64,000 nucleotides of DNA from contig JAKQTN010000069.1 of the NCBI GenBank assembly GCA_029563075.1, forward strand, positions 7,618 through 71,617, in the 5' to 3' direction. Within the stretch, counting starts at the first letter, position 1, and each line of letters opens with the position of its first letter. This document shows positions 12,343-63,106 of the stretch, one piece after another. The stretch is from Pseudomonadota bacterium (lineage in GTDB: Bacteria; Pseudomonadota; Gammaproteobacteria; Burkholderiales; Methylophilaceae). Below the pieces are notes generated by a model, which was not told the origin of the DNA, did no database searches, and saw nothing but the letters and a program-made list of their open reading frames with translations. Both the position numbers and the translations under genes were made by a program.

Positions 12343-12354
12343 GTCAATTTCCTG

Positions 12355-13695: not shown

Positions 13696-13707
13696 CTTGT
13701 TTTATCC

Positions 13708-36415: not shown

Positions 36416-37876
36416 CTATAGAGAGAGCATATCTACAAAAGTGTTGACTGGCATGGCCTCCAGCTTGGGTTGCTCTAAACATAAAGCCAGAATATCCGCT
36501 TGTTTTTTCACGTCAAAACGCCGTGCCAGGTTTACTTTGAATTTTTTTACCAATTCCGGAATGCCCTCTGCACGGCGGCGGCGGTGACCAATGGGATACT
36601 CCACTGCGATATTATTTGAGTTCGTACCATCTTTGAAGAAAATCTGAATCGCGTTGGCGATAGAGCGTTTTTCCGGGTCGTGATAATCGTGCGTATATTC
36701 TGGTTTTTCTACGCAGGTCATTTTAGCGCGAATGGCATCAATACGTGGGTCTGCGGCAGTTTTATCCTCATAATCCTGTGCAGTGAGACTGCCCTTGATT
36801 AAGCCGATTGCCGCCATGTATTGAATGCAGTGGTCGCGGTCAGCTGGATTGTTGAGCGGGCCAGTTTTGTCGATGATGCGAATGGCAGATTCATGCGTGG
36901 TGATGACGATTCTATCGATTTGTGCGATTTGCTCCAAGGTTTGCAATTTGTTTCCAGCTTCTTTGTTAAGCTGGAAGGCGCATTCCACTGCGGTCTGTGC
37001 ATGAAATTCAGCAGGGAATGAGATTTTGAACAGCACGTGTTCCATCACGTAAGAGCCATATGGTCGCTGGAATTTGAAAGCGTTGCCTTTGAACAGCACA
37101 TCGTAGAAGCCCCAAGTTTTAGCGGTGAGCGCGCTTGGATAACCCATTTCGCCTTGCATGGTCATCCAGGCCAAGCGCACTGCGCGACTTGTAGCGTCGC
37201 CGGCTGCCCATGATTTGCGCGAACCGGTATTCGGGCTATGACGATAGGTGCGCAGGCTTTGTCCATCCACAAACGCATTCGAAACCGCGTTGATAACATC
37301 CTCTTTATTGCCGCCGAGCAGCTTCGTTACCACCGCAGTTGAAGCGATTTTCACCAAGATGACATGGTCCAAACCTACGCGGTTAAAGCTGTTCTCAAGC
37401 GCCAGTACGCCTTGAATTTCATGCGCTTTAATCATGGCGGTCAGCACATCTTTAATGGTGAGCGGTGTTTTGCTCTCAGCCACGTTTTTACGCGAGATAT
37501 AGTCTGCCACGGCCAAAATGCCGCCCAAATTATCCGAGGGATGACCCCATTCCGCCGCCAGCCAGGTGTCGTTAAAGTCCAGCCAGCGAATCATTGCACC
37601 GATGTTGAAAGCGGCAAGAATCGGATCTAGCTGAAAGTTTGTGCCGGGAACTTTTGCGCCATTTGGCACGATCGTACCTGCGATCACGGGGCCGAGCAGT
37701 TTGGTGCAGGCAGGGTAATCCAGTGCTTCAAAGCCGCAACCCAGCGTATCCATCAGGCAGTTGCGTGCGGTATCAAAAGCTTCATCGCTTTTGATTTCGT
37801 AATCGGCGACATAATTGGCAATGTCAACAAGGACTTGATCGGGAGCAGGGCGGACGTTGGAAATGTGAGCGGACAT
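36416..37876 (-). CDS. prpD: 2-methylcitrate dehydratase
   Basis: [42 protein letters not shown]. Confidence 0.96.
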
Positions 37877-37892
37877 AATTTAATTACCCTTA

Positions 37893-38011
37893 TCAATTAG
37901 TTTTTAAGCGAATCGCTTTGTTACGCGGTGTTCAAAAACCTCATGTACTTTGTGTACATTCCGGTTTTTGCGCTCCGTGCGCCTCGCACTTCATCTTAAA
38001 AGCTGAATTGC
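37893..38011. mobile_element. 119-bp MITE-like element with imperfect terminal inverted repeats and TA flanks
   Basis: Left CAATT-AGTTTTTAAG (37894-37908) versus the reverse complement of right CTTAAAAGCTGAATTG (37995-38010). TA on both sides (37891-92, 38012-13). Internal hairpin CAAAAACC..ATGTAC-tttgt-GTACAT..GGTTTTTG. Confidence 0.55.
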
Positions 38012-38042
38012 TACAGGCAATTAAACGCAACAAAATTTAAGT

Positions 38043-39197
38043 TTATCTTTTATCTAATGGCACATACGGCCGATTCTCTGGCCCAGTGTATTCCGCATTT
38101 GGGCGGATGATTTTGTTGTCGATGCGCTGCTCAATGACATGCGCAACCCAGCCTGTGGTGCGTGAGATCACAAAAATCGGTGTGAACATGCCGGTAGGAA
38201 TACCCATCATGTGATAGCTGGAGGCGCTGTACCAATCCAAGTTTGGGAACATCTTTTTCTCGCGCCACATGGTCTCTTCAATGCGTGCAGAGACGTCAAA
38301 AAGCGTCATATTGCCGTTATCTTCGCCTAATCTACGAGAAACTGCTTTAATTGATTCATTTCTTGGGTCGGCAATCGTATATACAGGATGCCCAAACCCG
38401 ATAATGATTTCCTTGCGCGCCATGCGTTTCATAATATCGGCTTCGGCTTCATCGGGTGTTTTGTAACGCCCGATAATTTCCATTGCAGCCTCGTTAGCAC
38501 CGCCATGTTTTGAGCCGCGTAGTGCACCAATCGCTCCTGTAATGCAGCTGTACATATCAGACAGAGTGCCTGCAATAACCCGCGCAGTAAAAGTTGACGC
38601 ATTAAATTCATGCTCGGCGTACAGCACCAGCGAGGTGTTCATGGCGCGGATATGCAATTCAGATGGTGCTTTTCCATGCAGTAGATGCAAGAAGTGTGCA
38701 GCAATAGAATCCTCATCAGTCTCAACTTCGATGCGCTTGTGATTATGGTTAAAGTGATACCAGTACAATAAAATTGAGCCAAAGCAGGCAATGAGCCTGT
38801 CGCCCAAGTCTTTTGCTACGTCAGCATTACGGTCGCTGGCCTCTGGCTCTAGCGTGCCCAGCATGGAGCACCCTGTGCGCATCACATCCATCGGATGTGC
38901 GTTGGCGGGGATGCGTTCTAGCACCTCTTTGAGTGCCTGTGGCAAGCCGCGCAGCTTTTTTAGTCTGGCATGATAAGCCGTCAGTTGCGTTTTGTTGGGC
39001 AACTCTCCGTGAATGAGCAAATAAGCGACTTCTTCAAATGTGGCATATTTCGCAAGCTCGATGATGTCGTAACCACGATAATGCAGGTCGTTGCCTGTGT
39101 GTCCAACTGTGCAGATTGCTGTGCTGCCCGCTGCCACGCCAGCAAGGGCAACACCTTTTTTCTTTTTGGGTTCATGCGTTGTGATAGCTTCTGACAT
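38043..39197 (-). CDS. prpC: 2-methylcitrate synthase
   Basis: [41 protein letters not shown]. Start ATG 39197. Confidence 0.95.
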
Positions 39198-39198
39198 G

Positions 39199-40083
39199 CT
39201 ATTTTCCTTCCTTGAATAGCTGATCCAGCTTCTGCTCATAGGCGTGATAACCTAAGTGTTCGTAAAGCTCAGCGCGTGTCTGCATCAAATCCAGCACGTT
39301 TTTTTGAGTGCCTTCTTTTTTAACGGATTGATATACCTTAAGCGCGGCTTGGTTCATCGCCCTGAACGCCGAGAGAGGGTAGAGCACCATGCTGACATTC
39401 GCTGTTGCCAGTTCATTTACAGTGAATAACGGTGTGCTGCCAAACTCGGTGATATTGGCGAGCACCGGTACTTTTACAGCTTCGGCAAATTGTTTGTACA
39501 TGCCGAGATCGGTAATTGCTTCGGGGAACACCATGTCTGCGCCTGCCTCGACACAGGCACAGGCGCGGTCAATAGCGGACTGCAGTCCCTCCACAGCCAG
39601 TGCATCGGTGCGCGCCATAATCACAAAATCCAGGTCGGTTTTCGCATCTACAGCGGCTTTGATGCGGTCGACCATTTCTACCTGGCTGACAATCGCTTTG
39701 TTCGGGCGATGCCCGCAGCGTTTAGCCTGTACCTGGTCTTCAATATGAACGGCAGCGGCACCTGCTTTAATCACGCTTTTAATAGCGCGCGCAATGTTAA
39801 AGGCACCGCCAAAACCGGTGTCGATATCCACCAGCAAAGGCGTGTCAACCGCATCAGTGATTCGGCGCACATCAATCAATACGTCTTCCAGTGTGGAAAT
39901 GCCTAAATCGGGCAGGCCCAGTGAGCCCGCGGCCACACCACCGCCGGAAAGGTAAATGGCTTGAAAGCCGCTCTGGGTGGCAAGCATGGCGTGGTAGGCG
40001 TTAATCGCGCCGATGATTTGCAGCGGCTTCTCGGCTTTTAATGCGGCGCGAAAACGTGCGCCGGCAGACTGTGATGTTGTCAT
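39199..40083 (-). CDS. prpB: 2-methylisocitrate lyase
   Basis: [31 protein letters not shown]. Start corrected to ATG 40083. Confidence 0.96.
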
Positions 40084-41081
40084 GAAAAAAACCTTTGCTG
40101 AGCTTCGCTGGAAATTGCCACGCCAGTGAGTTTGGCTTTTTGCAGAATCTCCCAAAAATAGCGATAGGTGGCTCTGTCGTGCAACTCGCCTGCATATTGA
40201 ATTGGCCCCCAATCGGCCTGTTGCGCAGCAAGCAGGATATTTGCGGCATCCGCCACTTCGTCAAAATTGGGTTTCATGGCGTCGACAATCGCCTGAATCT
40301 GAGTAGGATAGATGCTCCACATGCGCATAAACCCAAATTCTTTACGGGCGCGGCTTGCATCGCTGAATGTGGTTTCCACGCTTTTTAAATCCAGTGTCAC
40401 GTTATGCGCAGGCACAACACCATTGGCCAAAGCGGCCGCCACTACTTCAGCTTTGGCGCGCGCTAATAATCTGTGCTCAAACTGCCCTGGGCTGCGCATG
40501 GCCGAAGCCGGAATCGCGCCGTGATGCGCGCTGACAAAATCCATCAAGCCAAAATCTAGTACTTGCACCCACGGCAACGTGGCGATTTCATGCGCTTGTC
40601 TGAGCGCGCCATGCGTTTCAATCAAAATATGCACAGGGATTTCACGTGGTTTTCCATTTTGTGAAACTCCGAAAAAAGTTGTCATTTTCTGGATATAAGC
40701 GGTCATTTCTCTCGCTTGGGCTAGCGTCGTGCATTTAGGAATCGTGATGTAGCTTAGCACCTGCCCAGCGCCGCCTACCAGGATGTTGACATCCTGCTTC
40801 CAGGCGGGGTGTGTATAGTCATGAATGCGTACACCTGCCATTTTGTGTTTGTTGGCGTCGCTGTTTAATACGCGTACAATCATTTCCGCGTGCTCACGTT
40901 CTTGACCGCTTGCTGCGCCATCCTCGCAGTCGCAGGTAATATCAAAAACCGCGCCGATACTGTCCTGCAGGGCAAGTGCTTTTAAGATGAGCTTTTCGCT
41001 GCCGGCGAAATGTTCGCATGCCGGAATCAGCGGAAAAGGTTTTTCGCCGCCAAAAAGTGCGTCTTTTGGATGGACTGCCAT
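40080..41081 (-). CDS. CitE-family (HpcH/HpaI aldolase/citrate lyase) protein 1, betaproteobacterial type
   Basis: MHPKDALF-type N-terminus, [31 protein letters not shown]. Confidence 0.85.
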
Positions 41082-42152: not shown

Positions 42153-43034
42153 CTATATAAGCTCTTCTTCTAATTCTGCGATCATGTCATGCAGTTTTAA
42201 CAAGCGCTGCGCGGCCTTTACATGGTGATGCTCGACCAGTCTGTCGTTCACCACCACGGTGCCGCGACCAGATTCATTGGCTTCTTTAAGCGCCTGAATA
42301 ATTGCGCGCGCATCTGCAACCTCGCTCGCTTTTGGCGTGTAGGCGTCGTTACTATAGGCAATTTGGCCAGGATGCACTAAGGTTTTGCCATCAAAGCCCA
42401 TATCTCGCCCCAAGCGGCAGGCGTATTCAAACGAATGCACATTCTTAAAGTCACTGGTGATACCATCTACCACGCAACGCCCATAAGCTCGCGCAGCCAA
42501 TATCACCAATGACAATGCAGTTAATATCGCGCTTTGCTCGTGTGTCACTCTCGCATGCAACTGTGAGGTTAAATCAGATGTCGCTATCATCATGCAAACA
42601 ATTCGGTCGGATGCTGCTGCGATTTCTTTGGCATTGAGCACCGCAATCGGGCTTTCTATCATCACCATAATCGGCATATGACTTCCGCCTGCATTATCCA
42701 GCAGTTTGAGCGCGGTATGCACATGCTCGGCCGATTCTATATTAGGAAAAAGTATCGCATGCGCACCAATATTGGCGACTGCTCTGATGTCGTCATGCCC
42801 CCAGATGGAATCGAGATTATTCACGCGCACGATCACCTCGCGTGAACCATAGCCACCTTGCTTTACTGCGGCGACAATGTTGTTGCGAGATTCAATTTTA
42901 GCGTCCACCAGAATCGGGTCACCCAGGTCGAGAATCACTGCGTCCGCAGGCAAGGTACGCGCGCGGTCCAGATAGCGCTGGTTGCAACCGGGTACATAAA
43001 GTACAGAGCGACGTGGTCGAAAACAAAGTTCCAT
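42153..43034 (-). CDS. CitE-family protein 2, malyl-CoA lyase/thioesterase (Mcl2)-like, with divergent motifs
   Basis: RPRRSVLYVPG, VRVN, MIES, GRDMGFDGKTLVHPGQI. Start corrected to ATG 43034. Confidence 0.8.
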   Translation of the reverse strand: MELCFRPRRSVLYVPGCNQRYLDRARTLPADAVILDLGDPILVDAKIESRNNIVAAVKQGGYGSREVIVRVNNLDSIWGHDDIRAVANIGAHAILFPNIESAEHVHTALKLLDNAGGSHMPIMVMIESPIAVLNAKEIAAASDRIVCMMIATSDLTSQLHARVTHEQSAILTALSLVILAARAYGRCVVDGITSDFKNVHSFEYACRLGRDMGFDGKTLVHPGQIAYSNDAYTPKASEVADARAIIQALKEANESGRGTVVVNDRLVEHHHVKAAQRLLKLHDMIAELEEELI

Positions 43035-43097
43035 AAAAATAAGTTTTAGTTGTGTATTGCAGCGATTATATAGATGGCTTTCTTGCGCTGTCAACAA

Positions 43098-43122
43098 ATA
43101 TCTTATGTCTTATATAAGATAT
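43098..43122. promoter_or_regulatory. GntR/HutC (SdhR-type) operator palindrome
   Basis: ATATCTTAT-gtcttat-ATAAGATAT. The core TCTTATGTCTTATATAAGA matches, from memory, the motif predicted for betaproteobacterial SdhR. Confidence 0.75.
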
Positions 43123-43188
43123 AAAATACTAGACTATTTTTATTCAGTATGTTTTAATTTGTTTAACTTAGAATAGCTGCAGTAAACC

Positions 43189-43926
43189 ATGAAAGATAAA
43201 ACTTACACTTCGCCAAGTTACAAGCCGCTTTACGATCAGATCAAGGTGTTGTTAACTCAAAGCTTGATTGGCGGTGAATGGCGTCCTGGTGAAATGATCC
43301 CAAGCGAAATCGAGCTGGCAGCACGCTATAAAGTAAGCCAAGGTACAGTGCGTAAGGCTATTGATAGCCTCGCAGGTGAGAATATTCTGATTCGCCGCCA
43401 GGGCAAAGGGACTTTTGTCGCCACACACAACGAGGAAGGTATCAAGCTGCGTTTTTTACGTCTGACCGCAGTGAATGGCCAAAAGGAGTTGCTGCAGAAT
43501 GAGTTGATATCGTGCGCTAAAACCAAAGCGGATAATCGCATTGCCAAGATTCTGGAGTTGAAGGCAGGTGCTGCCATGATTGAAGTAAAACGGCTACTTA
43601 CGTTTTCTGGCAGGCCATTGATTTATGACCATATAATCGTCCCAGCCGCACAGTTTAAAGGCCTGAATGCGAATAGGGTGGAAGAGAATAACGGTTCGAT
43701 GTACAGCATGTATGAGACGGAATACGGCATCCGCATGATTCGTGCAGAGGAGCGGCTTACCGCTGTGGCGGCAACGGATGAGGTTGCAAAAGCATTGCAT
43801 TTAAGCGAAGGCGCGCCACTGTTGAGTATTGAGCGCGTTTCGTATACTTATGGCGATAAGCCTATGGAATGGCGGCTAGGCTTATGTTTAACAGACGATC
43901 ATCACTACATGAGCGAATTAGAGTAA
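43189..43926 (+). CDS. GntR/HutC-family regulator (SdhR-type)
   Basis: PLYDQIK...PSEIELAARYKVSQGTVRKAI...QGKGTFV plus UTRA domain; upstream of sdhCDAB. Confidence 0.92.
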   Translation: MKDKTYTSPSYKPLYDQIKVLLTQSLIGGEWRPGEMIPSEIELAARYKVSQGTVRKAIDSLAGENILIRRQGKGTFVATHNEEGIKLRFLRLTAVNGQKELLQNELISCAKTKADNRIAKILELKAGAAMIEVKRLLTFSGRPLIYDHIIVPAAQFKGLNANRVEENNGSMYSMYETEYGIRMIRAEERLTAVAATDEVAKALHLSEGAPLLSIERVSYTYGDKPMEWRLGLCLTDDHHYMSELE

Positions 43927-43942
43927 AAATTGGAAGCAATAA

Positions 43943-45139
43943 ATGGATGACCTAAAAAAACGCGCACTCGATTATCATCAATTCCCCGTTCCTGGCAAGT
44001 TGAGCGTGGAGTCGTCCAAGCCTTGTGCGACGCAGGATGATTTGTCGCTGGCCTACACGCCCGGCGTAGCCGAGCCAGTACGTGAAATCAATGCTGACCC
44101 GGCCAATGCTTATAAGTATACTAACAAAGGCAATCTGGTCGCTGTGATTACCGATGGTACAGCGGTACTGGGCTTAGGTAATATGGGTGCGCTGGCTAGC
44201 AAACCGGTGATGGAGGGCAAGGCTGTCCTGTTCAAGCGCTTTGCGGGCATTGATGTGTTTGATATTGAAATCAATGCTAAAACGCCTGATGAATTTATTC
44301 AAACGGTCGTAAATATTGCGCCTACATTTGGCGGCATCAATCTGGAAGATATCGCGGCGCCGCATTGCTTTTACATTGAGAACGAGCTTAAAAAGCGCCT
44401 CGACATTCCTGTGTTCCATGATGATCAGCATGGCACGGCAGTCATAGTGGCGGCAGCCCTGTTGAACGCGCTTGAGCTGCAAGGCAAAACTTTGCCAACC
44501 GCAAAAATTGTGTTTCTGGGCGCGGGCGCGGCGGGTTGTTCATGTGCTAAGTTACTCAAGCTCATGGGCGCAACCAATGTGACGATGGTCGATAAAAAAG
44601 GGGTGCTTGATGCGGAAAGAGCCGATCTGCATGAGAATAATCGCGATCTTGCTGTGCAGCCAACCAGCTCAAAAACGCTGGCTGATGTCATGCCAAATTG
44701 CGATGTATTTATAGGTGTTTCGGCTAAAAATGCCCTGGATGCAGCACTGATTAGGAGTATGGCCAAAAATCCGATTATCTTTGCCTTAGCTAACCCTGAT
44801 CCTGAAGTATTGCCGAGCGTGGCACATGCCATACGCGATGATATTTTGATGGCAACCGGCCGCAGCGACTTTCCAAACCAGGTGAATAATGCGCTGTGTT
44901 TCCCTTATCTGTTCCGTGGCGCGCTGGATGCCAAAGCCACAAAGATCACGGAGAAAATGAAAATTGCCGCTGCACATGCATTGAGCGAGTTGGCGCGGGA
45001 GCCAGTGCCAGCCGATGTCTTGAAGGCATACAACCTGCAGGCGCTTGAATTCGGAAAAAATTACATTATTCCAAAGCCCTTCGACAAGCGTTTATTGGCG
45101 CGGGTTTCAGGGGCGGTCGCAATCGCCGCAATAGAATAA
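43943..45139 (+). CDS. NAD(P)-dependent malic enzyme, short form without PTA domain
   Basis: [46 protein letters not shown]; 398 aa. Confidence 0.93.
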
Positions 45140-45153
45140 GAAAAAATAGAATC

Positions 45154-45540: not shown

Positions 45541-45546
45541 TTTTGT

Positions 45547-45894: not shown

Positions 45895-45897
45895 CAA

Positions 45898-47661: not shown

Positions 47662-47662
47662 A

Positions 47663-48400
47663 ATGAAATTTAGCGTTTACAGATACAACCCGGACGCAGA
47701 CAAAAAGCCCTATATGCAGGATTACGACATCGAACTGCATGAGGAAGACCACATGCTCTTGGATGCACTGATCCGTATCAAAGAACACGATGAAACGCTG
47801 AGTTTACGTAAATCCTGCCGAGAAGGCGTGTGCGGCAGCGATGCGATGAATATCAACGGTAAAAATGGCCTGGCTTGCATTACCAAACTTGTGGATTTAG
47901 AAGAGCCAGTGGTGCTGCGCCCTATGCCGGGCTTGCCGGTGATTCGCGATTTGGTGGTCGATATGACACAGTTTTTCGAGCATTACAACTCGGTCAAGCC
48001 CTACCTTGTAAATAATGACCCGCTGCCGGAAACCGAACGCCTGCAAAGCCCGGAAGACCGTGCCAAACTGGACGGTCTGTACGAGTGTATTTTATGCGGT
48101 GCCTGTACCACGTCATGTCCAAGTTTCTGGTGGAATCCGGATAAGTTTGTCGGCCCGGCCGGCCTGATGCAGGCCTATCGGTTTATTGCAGACTCACGTG
48201 ACCAGGCTGAAGCCGAGCGACTGGAGAATCTCGAAGACCCTTATCGTTTATACCGCTGTCATAACATCATGAATTGTGTGGAAGTGTGCCCGAAAAAGCT
48301 CAACCCGAATGCGGCGATTGCCAAAATTAAAGACCTAAAAATCGAGCGGGCGCGTGAGCGCAAAATAACCAAAAAAGAAATACCAATCAAGGTGTTATAA
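47663..48400 (+). CDS. sdhB: Succinate dehydrogenase iron-sulfur subunit
   Basis: SCREGVCGSD, CILCGACTTSCP, CHNIMNCVEVCP. Start ATG 47663. Confidence 0.97.
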   Translation: MKFSVYRYNPDADKKPYMQDYDIELHEEDHMLLDALIRIKEHDETLSLRKSCREGVCGSDAMNINGKNGLACITKLVDLEEPVVLRPMPGLPVIRDLVVDMTQFFEHYNSVKPYLVNNDPLPETERLQSPEDRAKLDGLYECILCGACTTSCPSFWWNPDKFVGPAGLMQAYRFIADSRDQAEAERLENLEDPYRLYRCHNIMNCVEVCPKKLNPNAAIAKIKDLKIERARERKITKKEIPIKVL

Positions 48401-48688
48401 ATGCTGGATAGTGAACACATGAATGAAGCAGAACAACGGCGCTTAGCCTGGCGTTGTAGGCGTGGCCTGCTGGAGCTTGATATCGTGTTGCAGCGCTTTG
48501 TAAATGGGCAATTTAGCGAGCTGAGTTTGCGCGAGCAGCAGGCATTCGATGCGTTGCTCGACTTGCCGGACAATGATTTTTGGGCTTTGATCAGTGCAAC
48601 GGAAACGGCACATGAGAACGGCAGCATGCATAGCGTCATTACAAAATTAAGAGTGGCTGGAATGAACCATAATCAGGAGGCGAAATAA
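48401..48688 (+). CDS. sdhE: Succinate dehydrogenase assembly factor
   Basis: WRCRRGLLELD, LLDLPDNDF. Confidence 0.9.
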   Translation: MLDSEHMNEAEQRRLAWRCRRGLLELDIVLQRFVNGQFSELSLREQQAFDALLDLPDNDFWALISATETAHENGSMHSVITKLRVAGMNHNQEAK

Positions 48689-48689
48689 G

Positions 48690-49820
48690 GTGATGATGCA
48701 TATCGGTGGACAGGCGCTATCTATAGATGCTCGCGCGTTAGGTGACTACTGGCCGGGCATCCAGCTCTATTATCCGCCCGTAAAATACGCGCCCAGTCTC
48801 GGCATATATGAGGACATGGCGCAAGCCGCTGCGCGCATGAAAAAGCATGCACATTTTACCAATGCGCATACGTTGATTTTTGACCTGGAGGATGGTTGCC
48901 GGCAAAAAGAGATGAGTCGCGACTTGCTGCGACAAGAGTTGCCCGAGCTGCGACGAGTAAATCAAAACGTCACGATTGCGATTCGAGCCAACCCTTTCCG
49001 TACCGATGAATACGAGCTGGATATGCGGCTGGTGTGCGAGATGGCGGAATATATTGATGTTGTGATGCTGGCGAAAGCGGGCGAGGCCTATGGCGCGGCA
49101 GAGGTGCGGGATTTATCCAGTTTTCTGTTAAGTATTAATCCGAAAATCACTATTCAGCCGATTATTGAGCATCCAAAATCGCTCAAGATTGCGCCCGAGC
49201 TCATGCAGTACAACACAGTTAAACACGTGGTGTTCGGCATTCACGATTTTTCCAAAGCAATGGGCATTCATATTACGCCAGAAAACTGGATTGAAGAGCT
49301 GCAGTTTTACATGAACCAGCTTATGTTCGAGGCACGTATCGCGGGCAAGGGCGTGATAGGCGGCGTGGAGACTTTGCTCGGGGCTAATATCATGCCAGAG
49401 AAATATTTAGAGCCGCACGATGTGCGCCGTTGGCTGGATTTACATGGCGATAACGAATCGCGCATTGTATACAAACACGCCTGTCAGGAAGCCGCTATGG
49501 GGCTTACCGGCAAACAGGTCATTCATCCTGGGCATATTCATCTGTGTAAAACCGCTTATACACCATCACCCACCGATGTGGCGCAAAAAGTGGCAATTTT
49601 AAAAGCGGCGATTGAAGCCGATGCACTGCACGGCGGCGCGATTAAATTTGAAGGCGAGATGCTGGATCCGCCTATGTTCGGCAAGGCGCTGCAAACCCTG
49701 CTGCGCGCACATGCTTTACGTGCGCTTAAAACGGCAGATATGGAGTTTGCAGTGCATGTTCTGGAACTGCTACCAGCTCAGGTAGTGCGTCAAAATTGGC
49801 CATACGGAGTGCTACTTTAA
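48690..49820 (+). CDS. CitE-family protein 3 (atypical)
   Basis: IFDLEDG, IRAN, IIEHP, FGIHDF, GKQVIHP, EGEMLDPP. Confidence 0.8.
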   Translation: MMMHIGGQALSIDARALGDYWPGIQLYYPPVKYAPSLGIYEDMAQAAARMKKHAHFTNAHTLIFDLEDGCRQKEMSRDLLRQELPELRRVNQNVTIAIRANPFRTDEYELDMRLVCEMAEYIDVVMLAKAGEAYGAAEVRDLSSFLLSINPKITIQPIIEHPKSLKIAPELMQYNTVKHVVFGIHDFSKAMGIHITPENWIEELQFYMNQLMFEARIAGKGVIGGVETLLGANIMPEKYLEPHDVRRWLDLHGDNESRIVYKHACQEAAMGLTGKQVIHPGHIHLCKTAYTPSPTDVAQKVAILKAAIEADALHGGAIKFEGEMLDPPMFGKALQTLLRAHALRALKTADMEFAVHVLELLPAQVVRQNWPYGVLL

Positions 49821-51457
49821 TGTTTACAGACTTTCCCAAATGGGAATGGAATATTCCTGAATATTTCAATATCGGGGCAGCCTGCACCGATAGGCATCTC
49901 GGCACGCCACAAGCCGACAATATCGCCATGATTGTCGAAGATGATACGCTTGGAACTGCGCAAATCACCTTTGCCGAGCTGGCGCGTAAAACCGACCAGT
50001 TTGCACAGGTGCTGCGAAATTTAAACGTTAAGGTGGGTGACCGGGTGCTGATTCGCCTGCCGAACAGCCTGGATTACCCGATCGCATTTCTAGGGGCGAT
50101 GAAGATGGGTGCGATTTCTGTGCCGACATCAACGCTGCTCACGGCTGAAGAAGTGGCTTATCTGGCTAAGGACTCAGGCGCAACGGTGCTGGTGACGGAT
50201 GCGACAGCCTGGAAAAATATGGAAGAGCAATTGGTGCAAGGGTTAAGGGATACGCCTAATCTATCGCACATCTTGCTCTCGCAAGCCACCCATACTGAGC
50301 CGCATGGCTGCCTGAATGTACTGAGTTTGGAAAACAGTCTGAGCGCCACCCATAGGTGTGATAAGGTGCATAAAAGTAAGGCTGACGATCCCGCTTATCT
50401 GGTGTATACCTCTGGCACAACAGGCTACCCAAAAGGTGTTCTGCATGCGCACCGCGCCCTGCTTGGCCGTCAGCCTGCCGCGCAATACTGGTTTAATTAC
50501 AGTGACAGTGCACAAGATCGAATTATGCACTCGGGTAAATTTAACTGGACCTATGTGCTGGGCTCTGGCCTGATGGATCCGCTGTATTTGGGCAAAACCG
50601 TCATTGTGCACGAAGGGAAAAATGATGCGCAGAAATGGCTGGATTTGATTCAAAAACATCAAGCCACCATTTTTATTGGTGTGCCGACGATTTACCGCCA
50701 GATCTTGCAAAAAACAACAGCCACAAAAGAAGAATTGCCCAGTCTGCGCCACTACATGAGCGCGGGTGAGCACCTGTCTGACGAAGTGTTAAGCCAATGG
50801 CGCGAACGGTTTGGTTTGGATATTTATGAAGCCGTGGGCATGAGCGAGTTCTCGTACTATTTAAGCCAGAGTCAATTCCGTGCTATACGTGCGGGATCTG
50901 CAGGATTCGCGCAACCTGGCCATGCTATTAAATTGCTTAATCCTGAAACGCTGGAAGAAGTCGCTATGGGCGAAGAAGGCATGATTTGCGTGCCATTAGA
51001 CGACCCCGGCTTGTTTTTACTTTATTGGAATCTGGACGAAGAAACCGCAAAATATAAGCATAATGGCCACTTTTTCACGGGAGATTTTGCCAAATATGAT
51101 GCGGATGGCTACATCTGGTTTTTAGGCCGCAAAGACGACATTATCAAAAGCTTCGGTTATCGAGTATCGCCCTATGAGATCGAGCGCGTGTACAAAAATC
51201 ATCCTGATGTCGCAGATTGCGCGGCAATTGGCGAAGAGTTGGAGAAAGACAAGGTGCTAGTGGTGTGCTACGTGATACTAAAACCGGATTCAAGCACCAC
51301 CCCGGATGACTTGGCCAGCTTTGGCAAACAACATTTGGCCGCTTACAAAGCGCCAAAAACTGTTTATCTTGCGCATGATTTCCCACGCACTAAGAATGGT
51401 AAAATCTTGCGTAAAGATATTACACCCAGCATTGCGATAGCCAAAAGTTCGAGATGA
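49820..51457 (+). CDS. AMP-forming acyl-CoA ligase (medium-chain/aryl-CoA ligase-like), substrate unknown
   Basis: YTSGTTGYPKG, SAGE, GMSE, TGD, GRKDD, PRTKNGKILR. TAATG overlap with the upstream CitE gene. Confidence 0.88.
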   Translation: MFTDFPKWEWNIPEYFNIGAACTDRHLGTPQADNIAMIVEDDTLGTAQITFAELARKTDQFAQVLRNLNVKVGDRVLIRLPNSLDYPIAFLGAMKMGAISVPTSTLLTAEEVAYLAKDSGATVLVTDATAWKNMEEQLVQGLRDTPNLSHILLSQATHTEPHGCLNVLSLENSLSATHRCDKVHKSKADDPAYLVYTSGTTGYPKGVLHAHRALLGRQPAAQYWFNYSDSAQDRIMHSGKFNWTYVLGSGLMDPLYLGKTVIVHEGKNDAQKWLDLIQKHQATIFIGVPTIYRQILQKTTATKEELPSLRHYMSAGEHLSDEVLSQWRERFGLDIYEAVGMSEFSYYLSQSQFRAIRAGSAGFAQPGHAIKLLNPETLEEVAMGEEGMICVPLDDPGLFLLYWNLDEETAKYKHNGHFFTGDFAKYDADGYIWFLGRKDDIIKSFGYRVSPYEIERVYKNHPDVADCAAIGEELEKDKVLVVCYVILKPDSSTTPDDLASFGKQHLAAYKAPKTVYLAHDFPRTKNGKILRKDITPSIAIAKSSR

Positions 51458-52992
51458 GCATAATCAAACAAGAAGACTTTATTCAAAGCATCGCCGATGC
51501 TTTGCAGTACATTTCTTACTATCACCCGGCGGATTATATCCAAGCCTTGGGTGAGGCATATAAAGTTGAGCAATCGCCTGCGGCGAAAGATGCTATCGCG
51601 CAGATTCTTACCAATTCGCGCATGTGTGCAGAAGGCAAGCGCCCGATCTGTCAGGATACGGGCATTGTGGTGGCGTTTGTTAAAGTGGGCATGAGTGTGT
51701 GTTTTGAGGGCGAGCTATCATTGGAAGAAATGGTGAATGAGGGCGTGCGCCGCGCATATTTGCTGCCGGAGAATAAGCTGCGTGCCTCGATTGTGAACGA
51801 CCCTACTGGTGCCCGCAAAAACACCAAAGACAATACACCAGCTGTAACGCATGTAGAACTGGTGCAAGGCAACATGGTGGAAGTGAGTATTGCAGCAAAA
51901 GGCGGCGGTAGCGAGAATAAAGCCAAGTTCGCGATGCTTAACCCGAATGATTCTATCGTGGATTGGATACTGGAAACCGTGCCGACCATGGGCGCGGGCT
52001 GGTGTCCGCCTGGCATGCTGGGTATTGGTATTGGTGGTGATGCTGAAAAAGCCATGATTCTGGCCAAAGAATCGCTGATGCAGCCGATTAACATGCATGA
52101 ACTTATACAAAAGGGCGCACATAACAGACTGGAAGAGTTGCGGCTGGAGATTTACGAAAAAGTGAATAATCTCGGCATTGGTGCACAAGGTTTAGGTGGC
52201 CTGACAACAGTATTGGATGTGAAGATTTTGGATTATCCAACGCATGCGGCCAGTCTGCCGGTGGCGATTATTCCTAATTGTGCGGCGACGCGGCATATTC
52301 ACTTTAACTTGGGCGGCACGGGCGTAGCAGAGCTCACGCCGCCTGACATTAGCATCTATCCTGATATACACTGGGCACCGAGCCCGCAAGCCAGGCGTGT
52401 GAATCTAGACATGCTCACAAAAGCCGATATAGCCCATTGGCAGGCAGGCGAAACATTATTATTAAGCGGGAAATTGCTGACAGGGCGCGATGCTGCGCAT
52501 AAAAGAATATCCGCCATGCTGGCTAAAGGCGAGCAACTGCCCGTGGATTTTACCAACCGCTTTATTTATTACGTTGGCCCGGTGGATGCTGTCCGGGATG
52601 AAATAGTTGGCCCGGCAGGTCCAACCACGGCCACACGGATGGATGATTATACCGAGATGATGCTAGGGCAGCTCAACTTGTTGGGCAGTATTGGCAAGGC
52701 AGAGCGCGGTGACGAGGCTTTAGCAGTAATCGCTAAATACAAATCAGTGTACTTAATGGCCATTGGCGGCGCGGCGTATCTGGTGAGTAAAGCTATTAAA
52801 AAATCGCGTGTCGTTGCGTTTGCCGATTTGGGCATGGAAGCGATCTATGAGTTTGAAGTGGTGGATATGCCGGTGACGGTGGCTGTGAGCGCGACGGGTG
52901 AATCGGTGCACATAACCGGGCCTGCGGAATGGAAAGAAAGCATTGCGAAGCATAAAACAATAAAAATTCATTCTGTGCCGCAGTTTACATAG
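51454..52992 (+). CDS. fumA: Class I (Fe-S) fumarate hydratase
   Basis: PICQDTG, KGGGSEN, GWCPPG, TGRDAAH, GPTTATRMD. Confidence 0.93.
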   Translation: MSIIKQEDFIQSIADALQYISYYHPADYIQALGEAYKVEQSPAAKDAIAQILTNSRMCAEGKRPICQDTGIVVAFVKVGMSVCFEGELSLEEMVNEGVRRAYLLPENKLRASIVNDPTGARKNTKDNTPAVTHVELVQGNMVEVSIAAKGGGSENKAKFAMLNPNDSIVDWILETVPTMGAGWCPPGMLGIGIGGDAEKAMILAKESLMQPINMHELIQKGAHNRLEELRLEIYEKVNNLGIGAQGLGGLTTVLDVKILDYPTHAASLPVAIIPNCAATRHIHFNLGGTGVAELTPPDISIYPDIHWAPSPQARRVNLDMLTKADIAHWQAGETLLLSGKLLTGRDAAHKRISAMLAKGEQLPVDFTNRFIYYVGPVDAVRDEIVGPAGPTTATRMDDYTEMMLGQLNLLGSIGKAERGDEALAVIAKYKSVYLMAIGGAAYLVSKAIKKSRVVAFADLGMEAIYEFEVVDMPVTVAVSATGESVHITGPAEWKESIAKHKTIKIHSVPQFT

Positions 52993-53043
52993 TAGACTGC
53001 ACTTTTTGTACCAGTATCAGTCATAATGACTGGAGAATACACA

Positions 53044-53376
53044 ATGAATATACATCGATTTCTAAGGCTGACAGCACAGGTTGTTGCGATGATTTTTTTG
53101 CTATTGGCAGCGAATGCGGCCAGTGCGGATGATATATTGGGTTATCTCACCGATAAGGATGGCCGATATACAGGCCCGACGGTGGAAGATAATATCGCCA
53201 GGATGGATGCCGATAAAAATGGCTTCGCAGACGTGTTTGAAGTGCGTGCATTTTTGGAGCTGGAACACGGCAAAGGCTACGAAAAAGCACTGATGGATAA
53301 GTGGGAAGCCTCTGCCAGAGGTACAAGTTGTACCACGCCATTTTCCAAAGAGTTGTATGTAGATAAAAGCAACTAA
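53044..53376 (+). CDS. Small secreted EF-hand protein
   Basis: Signal peptide ending ANA-ASA; 12-residue loop DADKNGFADVFE; GGAG RBS before ATG 53044. Confidence 0.7.
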   Translation: MNIHRFLRLTAQVVAMIFLLLAANAASADDILGYLTDKDGRYTGPTVEDNIARMDADKNGFADVFEVRAFLELEHGKGYEKALMDKWEASARGTSCTTPFSKELYVDKSN

Positions 53377-53501
53377 TTTATTTCTCCGGTAATAGCGTTG
53401 ACTAAGTCATACCGGCGCTGGCAGGAATGATGGAATTTTCAAGCTGGTTGTATAATCACATTTTTAATTATTTTATCCAAATCTCAAAGATGCAAAACAC
53501 C

Positions 53502-56084
53502 ATGTTAAAAGCCTACCAAACGCATGTGCAAGAACGCGCAGCGCAACAGCTTCCACCGTTACCAATGACTGCTGAGCAGGTTGCACAATTGGTTGAGTTG
53601 CTTAAAAACCCGCCGGCAGGCGAAGAGGCTTTACTGACAGATCTGCTTGAAAACCGCACCCCCGCTGGTGTAGACCAAGCGGCTTATGTAAAAGCGGCAT
53701 TTTTGGCCGATATTGCCAAAGGCACTACCAAATCACCTCTGATTTCTCCGGAAAAGGCTGTGCAATTACTTGGCACCATGCTGGGTGGCTACAACGTGCA
53801 AGCGCTGGTTGAGTTATTAAGCACTCCAATGGCAGAGCATGCGGTTAAGGCGTTAAGCAGCACCATCTTGATGTTTGATGCGTTTCACGATGTGGATGTA
53901 TTGATGAAGGCGGGGAACGCCCATGCTAAAAAACTCATGCAATCCTGGGCAAATGCCGAGTGGTTTACCAGCAAACCCGCCATGCCGGATGAAATCAAAA
54001 TGGTGGTGTTTAAGGTCGATGGCGAAACCAACACGGATGACCTTAGTCCGGCGCAGGAGGCCTGGAGTCGCCCGGATATTCCGCTGCATGCCAAAGCCAT
54101 GCTGGTGAATAAAATGCCTGATGGCCTGAAAACCATCGAAAGCCTGAAGCAAAAAGGCCTGCCACTGGCTTACGTGGGCGACATCGTGGGCACGGGCTCA
54201 TCGCGCAAATCGGCGATTAACTCGGTGCAATGGTACATGGGCAACGATATTCCGAATATTCCCAATAAACGCACAGGCGGTGTGATTCTGGGCGGTAAAA
54301 TCGCGCCGATTTTCTTTAATACAGCAGAAGATTCAGGCGCCTTGCCGATTCAATGTGATGTTTCGAAAATGCATACATGTGATGTAATTACGATTAAACC
54401 GTTCGAGGGCAAAGTGTTGAATGACTCGGGAGAAGTCGTTTCCAGCTTTGAGCTTAGCCCAGTCACCATGCCTGATGAAGTGCGTGCGGGCGGCCGTATT
54501 CCTTTGATTATCGGTCGCGGCCTGACTTCTAACGCACGCAAGGCTTTGGGCTTGGCTGAAACAGATGTGTTTATTAAAGCAACACCTGCGGCAGTTTCGA
54601 AAAGGGGTTACACTCTCGCGCAAAAAATGGTGGGCAGAGCATGTGGGTTGCCAGAAGGTGTTGGGGTGCGCCCTGGTACTTATTGCGAGCCAAAAGCAAC
54701 AACTGTGGGCTCGCAGGACACCACTGGCGGCATGACGCGCGATGAGCTAAAAGAATTGGCATGTCTAGGGTTTAGCAGCGATCTGGTGATGCAGAGCTTC
54801 TGCCACACCGCCGCTTACCCGAAACCAGTCGATATCAAATTGCAGCACGAGTTGCCAGAGTTTATGTCTAGCCGCGGCGGGGTTTCTTTGCGTCCAGGCG
54901 ATGGCGTGATCCACTCCTGGCTCAACCGCATGATTCTGCCGGATACCGTTGGTACAGGCGGCGATTCACACACACGCTTCCCGATTGGTATTTCATTCCC
55001 CGCTGGTTCGGGGTTGGTGGCGTTTGCCGCGGCTACCGGCGCGATGCCGCTGGATATGCCGGAATCTGTCCTGGTGCGCTTCAAGGGAACCATGCAGCCG
55101 GGTATTACCCTGCGAGATCTGGTGAATGCGATTCCTTATGCGGCGATTCAGGAAGGTACGCTTACTGTGGGTAAGCAAGGTAAAAAGAACGTATTTAACG
55201 GCAGGATTTTAGAAATAGAAGGCCTGCCTGATTTGAAAGTCGAACAGGCCTTTGAGTTCGCAGATGCTTCTGCCGAGCGCTCTGCCAATGGTTGCACGGT
55301 GTTGCTGAACAAAGAGCCGGTGATTGAGTTTCTGAACTCCAATATCGTGCTGATGCAGAACATGATAGACAATGGCTATCAGGATGCACGCACTTTGCAG
55401 CGTCGCATCGCCAATATGCAGGCATGGCTGGAAAAATCAGAACTGCTGCAACCAGATGCCGATGCTGAATACGCGCATGTGATCGAGATTGATTTGAACG
55501 AAATCAAAGAGCCATTGGTGGCGTGCCCGAACGACCCGGATGACATCAAGCCGTTATCTGCTGTCGTGGGTGATAAGGTGGATGAGGTGTTTATAGGCAG
55601 TTGCATGACCAATATCGGCCATTACCGCGCCGCAGCCAAAGTGCTGGAAGGCACGGGCAACATCCCGACAAGACTGTGGATCGCACCGCCAACCCGTATG
55701 GATGAAGCGCAATTGCGTGACGAAGGCGTGTATTCTGTGTTTGGCGTAGCTGGTGCGCGTACCGAAGTCCCAGGTTGCAGCCTTTGCATGGGCAACCAGG
55801 CGCGTGTGGCAGATAAAGCGACTGTATTCAGTACCAGTACACGCAACTTTGATAACCGCATGGGCAAGGATGCGCGTGTTTATCTAGGTTCAGCAGAATT
55901 GGCTGCTGTCTGCGCCAAACTGGGCCGCATGCCAACGCATGCAGAATATATGGAAACCGTGGGCAATAAACTCGCTAACAGTGCGGAGATTTACAAATAT
56001 CTGAATTTTGACCAGATGACCGAATACAAGGGCGCCCTGGATAAGGTAAAGAAAGTCATTCCAATCGCAGAGCTTTCAGAATAA
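53502..56084 (+). CDS. acnB: Aconitate hydratase B / 2-methylisocitrate dehydratase
   Basis: [41 protein letters not shown]. Start ATG 53502. Confidence 0.97.
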
Positions 56085-63030: not shown

Positions 63031-63106
63031 GCGGGAATAGCTCAGCTGGTAGAGCGCAACCTTGCCAAGGTTGAGGTCGCGAGTTCGAGCCTCGTTTCCC
63101 GCTCCA
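63031..63106 (+). tRNA. tRNA-Gly (GCC)
   Basis: GCGGGAATAGCTCAGCTGGTAGAGCGCAACCTTGCCAAGGTTGAGGTCGCGAGTTCGAGCCTCGTTTCCCGCTCCA: cloverleaf with encoded CCA. Confidence 0.98.

Follow-up and report, generated by a model that had tools for sequence, protein, structure and literature searches.

What is a methylcitrate cycle for in a methylotroph, and why should its genes be held together with six others that plain propionate oxidation would leave idle? Both questions are raised by a stretch of Methylophilaceae DNA 64,000 nucleotides long, which we call the window. At 36416-56084 of the window a map of open reading frames (ORFs) and family scans place 18 tightly packed genes in two divergent arms that share one intergenic region. 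The left arm joins the methylcitrate genes prpB, prpC and prpD to genes for two CitE-like proteins, cyl1 and cyl2, and for a MaoC-type hydratase. The right arm joins a gntR regulator gene, a malic enzyme gene and sdhCDABE to a third CitE-like gene (cyl3), an AMP-forming acyl-CoA ligase gene, a class I fumarase gene (fumA) and acnB. Gene identities were taken from the ORF map and then from NCBIfam and Pfam profile scans, whose scores are given as bits against the curated equivalog cut-off. An earlier reading of this DNA, hereafter the original prediction, named these genes at these coordinates, and all of them are there.

The locus is not new. Gene for gene it is the 'methylcitric acid cycle' (MCC) cluster of the Methylophilaceae, described since 2008; it has been published as Mmol_0748-0766 and M301_0686-0703 (PMC3728764, PMC4109929). 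The published list reads prpD, prpC, prpB, cyl1, maoC, cyl2, gntR, mdh, sdhCDAB, orf, cyl3, prpE, fum, orf, acn (PMC4109929; PMC3728764 Table S11). In these papers of 2013-2014 the annotating authors call the substrate and role of the cluster unknown (PMC3728764, PMC4109929). Our full-text search found no paper that ties citramalate, citramalyl or mesaconyl-CoA chemistry to the Methylophilaceae, and older papers may hold an earlier proposal.

Our preferred answer, which we put forward tentatively and at somewhat less than an even chance, is that the whole divergon encodes one cyclic route for acetyl-CoA that would dispense with isocitrate lyase. It is the scheme of the original prediction with its enzymes corrected. 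Much of that scheme holds up: the gene set, the Mch family of the hydratase, the orthology of PrpBCD and AcnB, a ligase that is not PrpE, the lack of isocitrate lyase, and a link to the acetyl-CoA synthetase gene (acs). But the labels it gave to cyl1 and cyl2 are probably reversed, as we argue below.

Conservation and expression of the cluster

Relatives of cyl3 turned up in 374 of the species-representative genomes scanned, and the genome record closest to the window is a metagenome-assembled Methylotenera sp. The 80 best of these 374 are all Methylophilaceae, and among them the full order from prpB to acnB is kept in every locus long enough, in both Methylotenera and Methylophilus. The cyl3 protein is 85-100% identical across genera, which puts it level with SdhA, AcnB and the malic enzyme and ahead of MaoC (64-93%) and the ligase (72-94%). 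The original prediction expected the citE and mch genes to co-occur with prpBCD, and in the loci seen they are never lost apart from them; members of the family carry the cluster whole or not at all. According to the literature it is present in Methylotenera, Methylophilus, Ca. Methylosemipumilus and the marine OM43 clade and has been lost from Ca. Methylopumilus. It is also missing as a unit from Methylovorus (PMC3728764).

The published papers assign the cyl, maoC and ligase genes no part in a pathway. In lake-sediment incubations the MCC cluster is highly transcribed, opposite to the ribulose monophosphate (RuMP) cycle (PMC3728764, PMC4109929). In two Methylotenera species the whole cluster is induced together in situ, and few genes are induced more strongly than the gntR orthologues Mmol_0754 and M301_0692 (PMC3728764). 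In M. mobilis cyl2 reaches about 2600-3100 reads per kilobase per million (RPKM) in situ, cyl1 1300-1700, maoC 800-1200, cyl3 about 1150 and the ligase about 780; prpB and prpC stand at 560-790. The cyl, maoC and ligase genes co-vary with prp and are expressed at least as highly (PMC3728764). OM43 bacteria given dissolved organic matter are also reported to induce the MCC genes. The background against which all this must be read is that the Methylophilaceae are reported to lack the glyoxylate shunt, the ethylmalonyl-CoA pathway and 2-oxoglutarate dehydrogenase, and often have malate:quinone oxidoreductase (Mqo) instead of malate dehydrogenase (Mdh) (PMC4109929 and others).

The methylcitrate core

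There is little to argue about in the core of the cluster. PrpC, PrpD, PrpB and AcnB all score well over their equivalog cut-offs (Table 1), and by these profile matches PrpBCD and AcnB are true orthologues. Their orthology assigns them the conversion of propionyl-CoA and oxaloacetate to pyruvate and succinate. By the same kind of reasoning succinate dehydrogenase (with SdhE) and fumarase are the enzymes that take succinate to malate, and the malic enzyme takes malate to pyruvate. PrpB is not an isocitrate lyase in disguise, since it scores 82 bits on the isocitrate lyase model against a cut-off of 562. The original prediction said that the cluster has no prpE, isocitrate lyase, mdh or gltA, and the ORF map with NCBIfam and Pfam agrees: no PrpE orthologue, isocitrate lyase, Mdh or GltA is found within it. 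Neither isocitrate lyase nor a canonical malate synthase is present in the 64-kb window.

The hydratase and the three CitE-like proteins

MaoC finds the PDB entry 4e3e at 3e-128 with 57% identity and 8hgn, a 'beta-methylmalyl-CoA dehydratase', at 2e-112 with 52%. With the Ruegeria hydratase that serves the ethylmalonyl-CoA pathway it shares 51% identity, and with the mesaconyl-C1-CoA hydratases (Mch) of Chloroflexus and Ruegeria 51-57%. With about 350 residues, two MaoC hot-dog domains and this closeness to characterised Mch, it belongs by homology to the Mch family, and the original label 'Mch-like' was well chosen.

The CitE-like proteins are harder to assign and we rely on their catalytic residues. 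The lyase set, taken from Mcl1, comprises the N-terminal Asp/Glu/Asp, Arg76, Glu141, Asp168 and the lid Asp299 (R. sphaeroides numbering), and it is found whole in cyl1 and cyl3.

In cyl1 the set (DCED, Arg, Glu, Asp and a lid Asp in ELHD) is invariant in 59-60 orthologues. The best PDB matches of cyl1 are 3qqw (6e-152) and 3r4i (2e-109), two structural genomics entries whose clade is uncharacterised, and cyl1 lies outside any clade that holds a biochemically characterised Mcl. The next match is the malyl-CoA lyase 4l9y at 2e-14 and 57 bits, and there is no sequence match to the P. aeruginosa (S)-citramalyl-CoA lyase structure 8khl. The closest characterised relative of cyl1 is thus a malyl-/beta-methylmalyl-CoA lyase, not the citramalyl-CoA lyases. 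In Cupriavidus metallidurans, C. oxalaticus and Sphingobium a gene whose product is 63-67% identical to cyl1 directly follows a MaoC homologue. We consider cyl1 the likely beta-methylmalyl-/malyl-CoA lyase that partners the hydratase.

The cyl2 protein aligns best to malyl-CoA lyases, but it has a lid Glu (RLVE) where 4l9y has Asp (RLVD), and DLGD in place of DLED. Both substitutions are invariant in 63 orthologues. The change of the lid Asp to Glu is the one exception in the superfamily, and it identifies the clade to which the malyl-CoA thioesterase Mcl2 of Rhodobacter belongs (Zarzycki & Kerfeld 2013, PMC3832036). The megaplasmid of Ruegeria sp. TM1040 carries an mcl2-like gene and mch between mdh and sdhCDAB (L086, 1823-13041), and cyl2 is 42% identical (3e-82) to the 284-residue, mch-linked CitE-like protein of this organism, which also has Glu (KIVE). 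With its conserved lid Glu cyl2 has the mark of Mcl2, so we predict that it is probably of the malyl-CoA thioesterase type and reject it as the main lyase. The original prediction had called cyl2 'Mcl-like' and cyl1 'CitE1'. We would exchange these roles because cyl1 has the full lyase residues and sits next to the hydratase, while cyl2 has the thioesterase signature.

In cyl3 the residues DLED, Arg, Glu, Asp and the lid Asp are invariant in 80 orthologues. Its AlphaFold2 (AF2) model, with a predicted local distance difference test (pLDDT) score of 91, has the CitE/Mcl fold, and a Foldseek search shows no preference for synthase-type or lyase-type relatives. The family is rare: about six full-length clusters at 50% identity beyond its own exist among 1.84 billion representative proteins. 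We infer that cyl3 forms citramalyl-CoA, as an '(S)-citramalate synthase', or else is a malyl-/citramalyl-CoA lyase.

One obvious candidate, a canonical RipABC-type itaconate operon, can be set aside here. The RipC_Ccl equivalog has a cut-off of 375 bits and cyl1, cyl2 and cyl3 score 45, 125 and 45; MaoC scores 118 bits on RipB_Ich against a cut-off of 340; and the cluster has no CoA transferase.

The ligase and the fumarase

The literature calls the ligase gene prpE. We believe this name is wrong. The protein shares 27% identity with E. coli PrpE and 24-25% with Acs, and no equivalog cut-off is reached. The Trp that gates the acid pocket of Acs and PrpE (WWQTE/YWQTE) is Gly (VGMSE) in all ligase orthologues, and a neighbouring pocket motif, SGKFNWTYVLG, holds a conserved K/R. 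The pocket-limiting Trp of the PrpE/Acs type is therefore lacking, and we reject the ligase as PrpE or Acs. Published Acs mutants with an opened pocket reportedly fit larger acids. Because of this and the Gly at the Trp position we predict that the ligase takes an acid bigger than propionate; it would be a C4/C5 (di)carboxylate-CoA ligase and is a candidate mesaconate-CoA ligase. The original prediction would have fallen had the ligase activated only propionate or acetate, which the Trp to Gly change in all orthologues makes unlikely.

Fumarases of class I add water to mesaconate, which gives (S)-citramalate (PMC4682846), in agreement with the interconversion that the original prediction had counted as established. 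This makes fumA a candidate bifunctional fumarase/mesaconase.

The cyl3-ligase module outside the Methylophilaceae

Outside the family, too, cyl3 and the ligase are found as a pair. Homologue searches with the window cyl3 and the genome scan gave Methylophilaceae only, so distant relatives were found through a library of representative proteins and then by searches seeded with them. We read the genomic context of 12 such relatives and aligned the ligase in seven of those loci. In all 12 the same ligase orthologue lies just downstream of cyl3, and in the seven aligned loci it is 43-67% identical to the window ligase. Two acs-linked loci have an unrelated insert between the two genes, a TPR/methyltransferase gene in one (L091, 11167-13080) and a cupin gene in the other (L097, 11145-11573).

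In a large clade of uncultured Betaproteobacteria, which includes Usitatibacter-like organisms, the pair is part of a unit of cyl3, ligase, a UPF0114 membrane-protein gene and class I fumarase. Identities to the window proteins are 69-78% for cyl3, 64-67% for the ligase and 67-72% for the fumarase. Outside the Methylophilaceae the fumarase-bearing unit divergently adjoins acs in seven of eight loci. These acs-linked loci usually also hold a DUF294/CBS-exonuclease pair and a sensor kinase with a GerE-type regulator, and two hold ActP/YjcH-like permease genes. The association with acs is not merely inherited synteny, because one locus has a different right flank. We believe these neighbours, acs and the acetate-permease-like genes, support a tie between the cyl3-ligase-fumarase module and acetyl-CoA that is independent of anything in the Methylophilaceae. 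A Ser/Thr kinase gene follows the fumarase gene in three loci (L095, L097 and L099).

The UPF0114 gene deserves attention because the window has one too, just beyond acnB. Its product is 56-66% identical to the UPF0114 proteins encoded between ligase and fumarase in the acs-linked modules, and about 24 Methylophilaceae loci, most of them from Methylotenera, have the gene in this place after acnB. It is probably an extra member of the module and may be its missing transport or membrane component. Because of this orthology and retention the functional unit probably extends past the 18 genes that the original prediction delimited. Its remark that there is no transporter is correct within that range, but this membrane-protein gene just outside probably belongs to the conserved module.

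A proposed citramalate-methylcitrate cycle

The six extra genes are exactly the set that would link acetyl-CoA and pyruvate to glyoxylate and propionyl-CoA by way of free citramalate and mesaconate. First, cyl3 would join acetyl-CoA and pyruvate to (S)-citramalyl-CoA, which cyl3 itself or cyl2 would hydrolyse to (S)-citramalate. The class I fumarase would then convert citramalate to mesaconate, and the ligase would make mesaconyl-C1-CoA, spending ATP to AMP and pyrophosphate. Mch would hydrate this ester to beta-methylmalyl-CoA, and cyl1 would split the product into glyoxylate and propionyl-CoA, from which the methylcitrate enzymes would regenerate pyruvate. Finally cyl1 and the thioesterase-type cyl2 would turn glyoxylate and a second acetyl-CoA into malate, much like the 'apparent malate synthase' formed by Rhodobacter Mcl1 and Mcl2.

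On balance acetyl-CoA and oxaloacetate would become glyoxylate and succinate, and the glyoxylate bypass would run with no need of isocitrate lyase. The oxaloacetate would have to be restored by an enzyme encoded outside the cluster, malate:quinone oxidoreductase or pyruvate carboxylase. The malic enzyme has two fitting uses: it could supply C3 compounds, or, with pyruvate dehydrogenase (whose genes lie 20 kb upstream), it could allow the complete oxidation of acetyl-CoA without 2-oxoglutarate dehydrogenase. Hydrolysis of citramalyl-CoA and ATP-driven activation of mesaconate would drive the forward direction. Since the forward route is uphill without such coupling, the direction of flux would depend on the choice of ester for hydrolysis and on the substrate acid of the ligase.

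What recommends this cycle is its completeness. All 12 of the cluster's enzymes or complexes have a role in it and only the regeneration of oxaloacetate is missing from the cluster. Each step of a citramalate cycle has a candidate (cyl3, fumA, ligase, maoC, cyl1, prpBCD/acnB), with orthology behind Mch and Prp only. We favour the cycle because it finds a role for every gene and because of the linkage to acs, the CitE-fold thioesterase cyl2 and the translational coupling of cyl1 to prpB. It is more doubtful, and we would call it unlikely if pressed, that a natural citramalate-methylcitrate cycle runs in both the Methylophilaceae and the Usitatibacter-like clade with the acs-linked module, replacing isocitrate lyase and, together with malic enzyme and pyruvate dehydrogenase, 2-oxoglutarate dehydrogenase as well.

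Several points weigh against the cycle. The roles of the six extra genes come from sequence comparison. The forward direction would cost about +12 to +14 kJ/mol if uncoupled, by our estimate from standard formation energies of the free acids, and each turn of the cycle would consume two ATP equivalents. Methylotenera mobilis, by its description an obligate methylotroph, is not known to grow on acetate, and a RuMP-cycle methylotroph on C1 substrates needs no C2 assimilation. The cyl3-ligase pair occurs without a fumarase gene in two metagenome contigs and in Leptospiraceae (Turneriella), where it may serve a different substrate; the order of a catabolic ligase and then a lyase suggests a simpler account of such a lone pair.

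A further point is the regiochemistry of the hydratase. In a neighbour-joining tree the Methylophilaceae MaoC clade is intermediate between true Mch (identities 51-57%) and a clade from catabolic clusters of Cupriavidus, Sphingobium and Marinobacter (52-55%), a placement compatible with C1 as well as with C4. By Pfam annotation the Cupriavidus MaoC-cyl1 pairs adjoin genes for a family III CoA transferase, an MmgE/PrpD protein, an acyl-CoA dehydrogenase and TctC. The itaconate and methylsuccinate clusters described by the Berg laboratory have the same gene types and run through C4 esters to acetyl-CoA and pyruvate. A C4 version of the window pair, like Ich and Ccl, may do the same and would give no propionyl-CoA. 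For this reason the adjacency of MaoC and cyl1 in Cupriavidus is not the clean proof of Mch and beta-methylmalyl-CoA lyase that it might seem. We do not equate the MaoC/cyl1 pairs with the itaconate clusters, because cyl1 has no match to 8khl and has 4l9y nearest among characterised lyases, the RipB_Ich and RipC_Ccl scores are far under their cut-offs, and the Paraburkholderia cyl1 homologue Bxe_B2899 lies far from the itaconate cluster around Bxe_B2582. The C1 regiochemistry of the MaoC/cyl1 pair is favoured on these comparisons.

Alternative explanations

The alternative that survives best, unlikely as we hold it to be, is catabolism of C5 dicarboxylates or the same chemistry run in reverse. 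The original prediction had itself named the catabolism of mesaconate or itaconate as its alternative. Fumarase, ligase and cyl3 would take mesaconate through (S)-citramalate and citramalyl-CoA to acetyl-CoA and pyruvate, as in P. xenovorans, or the same three enzymes may take fumarate through malate and malyl-CoA to acetyl-CoA and glyoxylate. MaoC and cyl1 may degrade CoA esters derived from mesaconyl-, itaconyl- or methylsuccinyl-CoA while the Prp enzymes clear propionyl-CoA; or they may turn glyoxylate and propionyl-CoA into acetyl-CoA and pyruvate, as the second cycle of the 3-hydroxypropionate bi-cycle does.

This direction is exergonic, by our estimate about -12 to -14 kJ/mol, and the known mesaconate route uses a class I fumarase and a citramalyl-CoA lyase (PMC4682846). 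Elsewhere the MaoC-cyl1 pairs do lie in catabolic clusters like the characterised itaconate/methylsuccinate cluster. The Leptospiraceae pair (L090, L093) sits between an MFS transporter gene and a MarR regulator gene, a pattern of uptake, activation and cleavage. The two metagenome pairs (L088/L089) follow a conserved group of methyltransferase, sedolisin-like protease and unknown genes.

However, nothing evident would provide these methylotrophs with glyoxylate and propionyl-CoA together, or with C5 acids from outside, and apart from UPF0114, itself uncharacterised, the cluster has no solute transporter. Unless the two work in series, a second C5 route beside the first would be redundant here. 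The CitE-fold thioesterase cyl2 is unlikely to be a mesaconyl-CoA hydrolase because that substrate has no beta-hydroxyl, and the RipB_Ich and RipC_Ccl cut-offs are missed widely. C5 catabolism also leaves unexplained why related modules are linked to acs in seven of eight loci and why the genes are coupled to prp here. That the streamlined OM43 genomes have kept the genes, and that these are so strongly expressed in situ, points instead to a central role.

Less likely again is a plain methylcitrate cycle for external propionate or internal propionyl-CoA, with the ligase as propionyl-CoA synthetase and the CitE-like genes and maoC as accessories for glyoxylate/malyl-CoA handling or metabolite repair. 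PrpBCD, AcnB, Sdh and Fum do make up a complete and orthodox propionate oxidation, and propionate is a common fermentation product in sediments. The induction of these genes in OM43 by dissolved organic matter, reported in the literature, fits too, and the literature labels the ligase prpE and the cluster MCC. But the annotators who chose these labels themselves call the substrate and role unknown (PMC3728764, PMC4109929), and the ligase has only 27% identity to PrpE, a Gly at the pocket Trp and no equivalog cut-off reached. Six of the 18 genes would be idle, yet they are translationally coupled to prpB and fumA, their expression equals or exceeds that of prpBCD, and in the loci seen none of them is lost separately. 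One of the supposed accessories, cyl3, is among the most conserved proteins of the cluster.

The remaining probability goes to schemes outside these three.

Gene map and control region

The coordinates of the genes are collected in Table 1. The left-arm junctions, read directly from the letters, are TAG|ATG between cyl2 and maoC, TAA|ATG between maoC and cyl1, an ATGA overlap between cyl1 and prpB, and TAG-C-ATG between prpB and prpC. The abutting and overlapping codons and the 1-nt gap that the original prediction described in this arm are thus all real. The right arm has TAA|ATG between sdhB and sdhE, TAATG between cyl3 and the ligase and ATGA between the ligase and fumA. Within their ORFs prpC and cyl2 probably start at internal ATGs, 39197 and 43034.

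Table 1. Genes of the divergon and its UPF0114 neighbour, with window coordinates and the evidence for each assignment
Feature	Coordinates	Strand	Evidence or predicted assignment
prpD, 2-methylcitrate dehydratase	36416-37876	minus	NCBIfam NF006943 885.7 bits (cut-off 575); 69% identity to E. coli PrpD
prpC, 2-methylcitrate synthase	38043-39239, probable start ATG 39197	minus	NF009006 684 bits (cut-off 550); 65% identity to E. coli PrpC
prpB, 2-methylisocitrate lyase	39199-40083	minus	NF008455 544 bits (cut-off 353); 73% identity to E. coli PrpB
cyl1, CitE-like ('CitE1' of the original prediction)	40080-41081	minus	3QQW/3R4I clade; inferred beta-methylmalyl-CoA/malyl-CoA lyase
maoC/mch, double hot-dog, 356 aa	41082-42152	minus	predicted mesaconyl-CoA hydratase (beta-methylmalyl-CoA dehydratase family)
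cyl2, CitE-like ('Mcl-like' of the original prediction)	42153-43097, probable start ATG 43034	minus	malyl-CoA thioesterase (Mcl2) signature
gntR, HutC/PhnF-type regulator	43189-43926	plus	NCBIfam GntR/HutC/PhnF matches, all under their cut-offs
Malic enzyme, short form without PTA domain ('mdh' in the literature)	43943-45139	plus	Pfam malic and Malic_M
sdhCDAB, succinate dehydrogenase	45154-48400	plus	TIGR02970, TIGR02968, TIGR01816 (946 bits, cut-off 727), NF004616; all over cut-off
sdhE, FAD assembly factor	48401-48688	plus	Pfam Sdh5 74.8 bits
cyl3, divergent CitE-like ('CitE3' of the original prediction)	48690-49820	plus	full catalytic residue set
AMP-forming acyl-CoA ligase ('prpE' in the literature)	49796-51457, probable start ATG 49820	plus	NCBIfam: no equivalog cut-off reached
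fumA, class I (Fe-S) fumarase	51454-52992	plus	Pfam Fumerase 329 bits, Fumerase_C 264 bits
116-aa ORF, small secreted EF-hand protein	53026-53376	plus	signal peptide and EF-hand loop DADKNGFADVFE
acnB, aconitase 2 / 2-methylisocitrate dehydratase	53427-56084	plus	TIGR00117 1489 bits (cut-off 1287)
UPF0114 (YqhA-like) membrane protein, outside the range of the original prediction	56610-57173	minus	Pfam UPF0114 128 bits

The two arms share a conserved control region. A perfect 12-bp palindrome, TCTTATATAAGA, lies at 43108-43119 between cyl2 and gntR, in a single copy in the window. In 62 of 63 Methylophilaceae loci its core is the same to the letter, while the intergenic DNA around it varies. 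A block around it, TGTCAACAAATATCTTATGTCTTATATAAGATATAAAATACTAGAC (43089-43134), is nearly invariant in Methylotenera and Methylophilus and holds both the palindrome and the -35 box of the left-arm promoter. That promoter (43094-43065, minus strand) matches the sigma-70 consensus at 12 of 12 positions, is the sole such match in 20 kb and reads into the left arm. Our promoter and terminator scans were at chance level overall, so we use only this one promoter within the conserved block. Its position is our reason for starting cyl2 at ATG 43034 and not at TTG 43097. With a regulator gene beside a conserved palindrome in a shared promoter region the locus has the form of a GntR/HutC divergon, and the palindrome is its putative GntR operator. 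In five loci (L025, L026, L028, L069 and L072) the palindrome is tandemly duplicated. The original prediction held that two coupled arms diverge from one regulator; the packing and divergence of the genes agree, and the single perfect promoter and invariant palindrome in the shared region make that view well founded.

A 166-bp spacer (37877-38042) parts prpC from prpD where the other left-arm genes abut or overlap. In M. mobilis the published prpD transcripts are about 4-fold under those of prpC (PMC3728764), and together the two observations suggest attenuation or a separate promoter. On the right arm a terminator-like hairpin (52980-53000, plus strand; 9-bp stem, T-rich tail) lies over the fumA stop codon, so the 116-aa ORF and acnB are possibly transcribed partly apart from sdh, cyl3, ligase and fumA. 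This 116-aa ORF, which corresponds to Mmol_0765, matches no Pfam or NCBIfam family. The EF-hand gene of the original prediction is nonetheless real: besides the signal peptide and the canonical loop DADKNGFADVFE there is a second, degenerate loop, and the gene keeps its position between fumA and acnB across the Methylophilaceae at 50-82% identity. It is predicted to be of the periplasmic Ca2+- or lanthanide-binding type and is oddly placed in an operon of central carbon metabolism.

The malic enzyme aligns to the first 403 of the 764 positions of the NADP malic enzyme profile NF009501, and its orthologue Mmol_0756 is annotated as oxaloacetate-decarboxylating (PMC3728764 Table S11). Between gntR and the malic enzyme gene (43926-43943) there are 16 nt here, which leaves no counterpart of Mmol_0755, a hypothetical gene that is highly expressed in M. 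mobilis (PMC3728764). Housekeeping genes unrelated to the cluster flank it, purB on the left and rlmJ, a cation-efflux gene, udg and uvrC on the right. The genes of the pyruvate dehydrogenase complex, aceE, aceF and an lpd with an N-terminal lipoyl domain, are at 10585-16392 on the minus strand, about 20 kb upstream. In both forms of the proposed cycle this complex would connect pyruvate with acetyl-CoA. An Rfam scan of the window gave only two tRNAs (63031-63103 and 63194-63264, plus strand), downstream of pgsA and far from the cluster.

Relation to known systems

The window holds the orthologous copy of the Methylotenera MCC cluster, with the same genes in the same order and, like it, purB upstream; M. 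mobilis differs by the extra Mmol_0755 and by two genes between purB and prpD. Compared with the classical prp operons, prpBCDE of E. coli and Salmonella and prpBC-acnM-prpF of Ralstonia, PrpB, PrpC and PrpD are 65-73% identical to their E. coli counterparts, and AcnB would be the 2-methylisocitrate dehydratase here. Unlike those operons this cluster has no PrpE orthologue and no PrpR, with a GntR-type regulator instead, and it is joined to sdh, fumarase, malic enzyme, three CitE-like genes, a Mch-type hydratase and a ligase that is not PrpE.

A functional parallel is with the end of the Rhodobacter ethylmalonyl-CoA pathway, where Mch, Mcl1 and Mcl2 form the same trio that we predict here, a hydratase, a lyase and a lid-Glu thioesterase. 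In Ruegeria, too, mch and the mcl2-like gene between mdh and sdhCDAB put genes for C5-CoA esters among those of the tricarboxylic acid (TCA) cycle, as the Methylophilaceae cluster does. The differences are that cyl1 belongs to the 3QQW/3R4I clade and not to Mcl1, that Ccr, Ecm and Mcd are absent from the cluster, and that propionyl-CoA would enter the methylcitrate cycle here and not the B12-dependent carboxylation and mutase steps.

The chemistry has been proposed before. Ivanovsky et al. reportedly suggested a 'citramalate cycle' for Rhodospirillum rubrum, from acetyl-CoA and pyruvate by way of citramalate, mesaconate, mesaconyl-CoA and beta-methylmalyl-CoA to glyoxylate and propionyl-CoA, that closes by carboxylation of propionyl-CoA. 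To our knowledge it was never backed by a gene set, and it has been superseded in that organism by the ethylmalonyl-CoA pathway. Here, in contrast, there is a complete candidate gene set, and closure would be by the methylcitrate enzymes. The methylaspartate cycle of haloarchaea also activates free mesaconate to mesaconyl-C1-CoA and uses Mch and a CitE-type lyase to reach glyoxylate and propionyl-CoA, with CitE-type malate formation. It differs in making mesaconate from glutamate through a B12 mutase and methylaspartate ammonia-lyase, in its CoA transferase and in its propionyl-CoA carboxylation, and none of these genes is in the window.

The degradation pathways for itaconate, methylsuccinate and mesaconate (Ict-Ich-Ccl, RipABC, P. 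xenovorans) have three enzyme types in common with the cluster: MaoC-type hydratase, CitE-type lyase and class I fumarase, the last in the role of mesaconase. The nearest homologues of MaoC and cyl1 outside the Methylophilaceae, those of Cupriavidus, do stand beside genes of this kind, for a CoA transferase, an MmgE/PrpD protein and an acyl-CoA dehydrogenase. The cluster itself differs in having no CoA transferase, acyl-CoA dehydrogenase or MmgE-type isomerase, and in falling short of RipB_Ich and RipC_Ccl.

Conclusions

The role of the MCC cluster has been an open question in the physiology of methylotrophs since 2008, and it is an important one, as the cluster is among the most highly expressed Methylotenera gene sets in lake sediment and is kept even in the streamlined OM43 genomes. 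Even if the cycle proves wrong, the acs-linked module of cyl3, ligase, UPF0114 and fumarase and the corrected lyase and thioesterase assignments stand as leads. If the cycle is right, three orphan families, the 3QQW/3R4I CitE clade, the cyl3 clade and its partner ligase, would gain functions of possible use in pathway engineering. The glyoxylate cycle, the ethylmalonyl-CoA pathway and the methylaspartate cycle would be joined by a fourth natural route of acetyl-CoA assimilation, one that needs neither B12 nor isocitrate lyase. The cycle would also explain why 'obligate' methylotrophs express methylcitrate genes so highly, and it would mean that these abundant organisms co-use acetate or pyruvate-derived carbon in nature.

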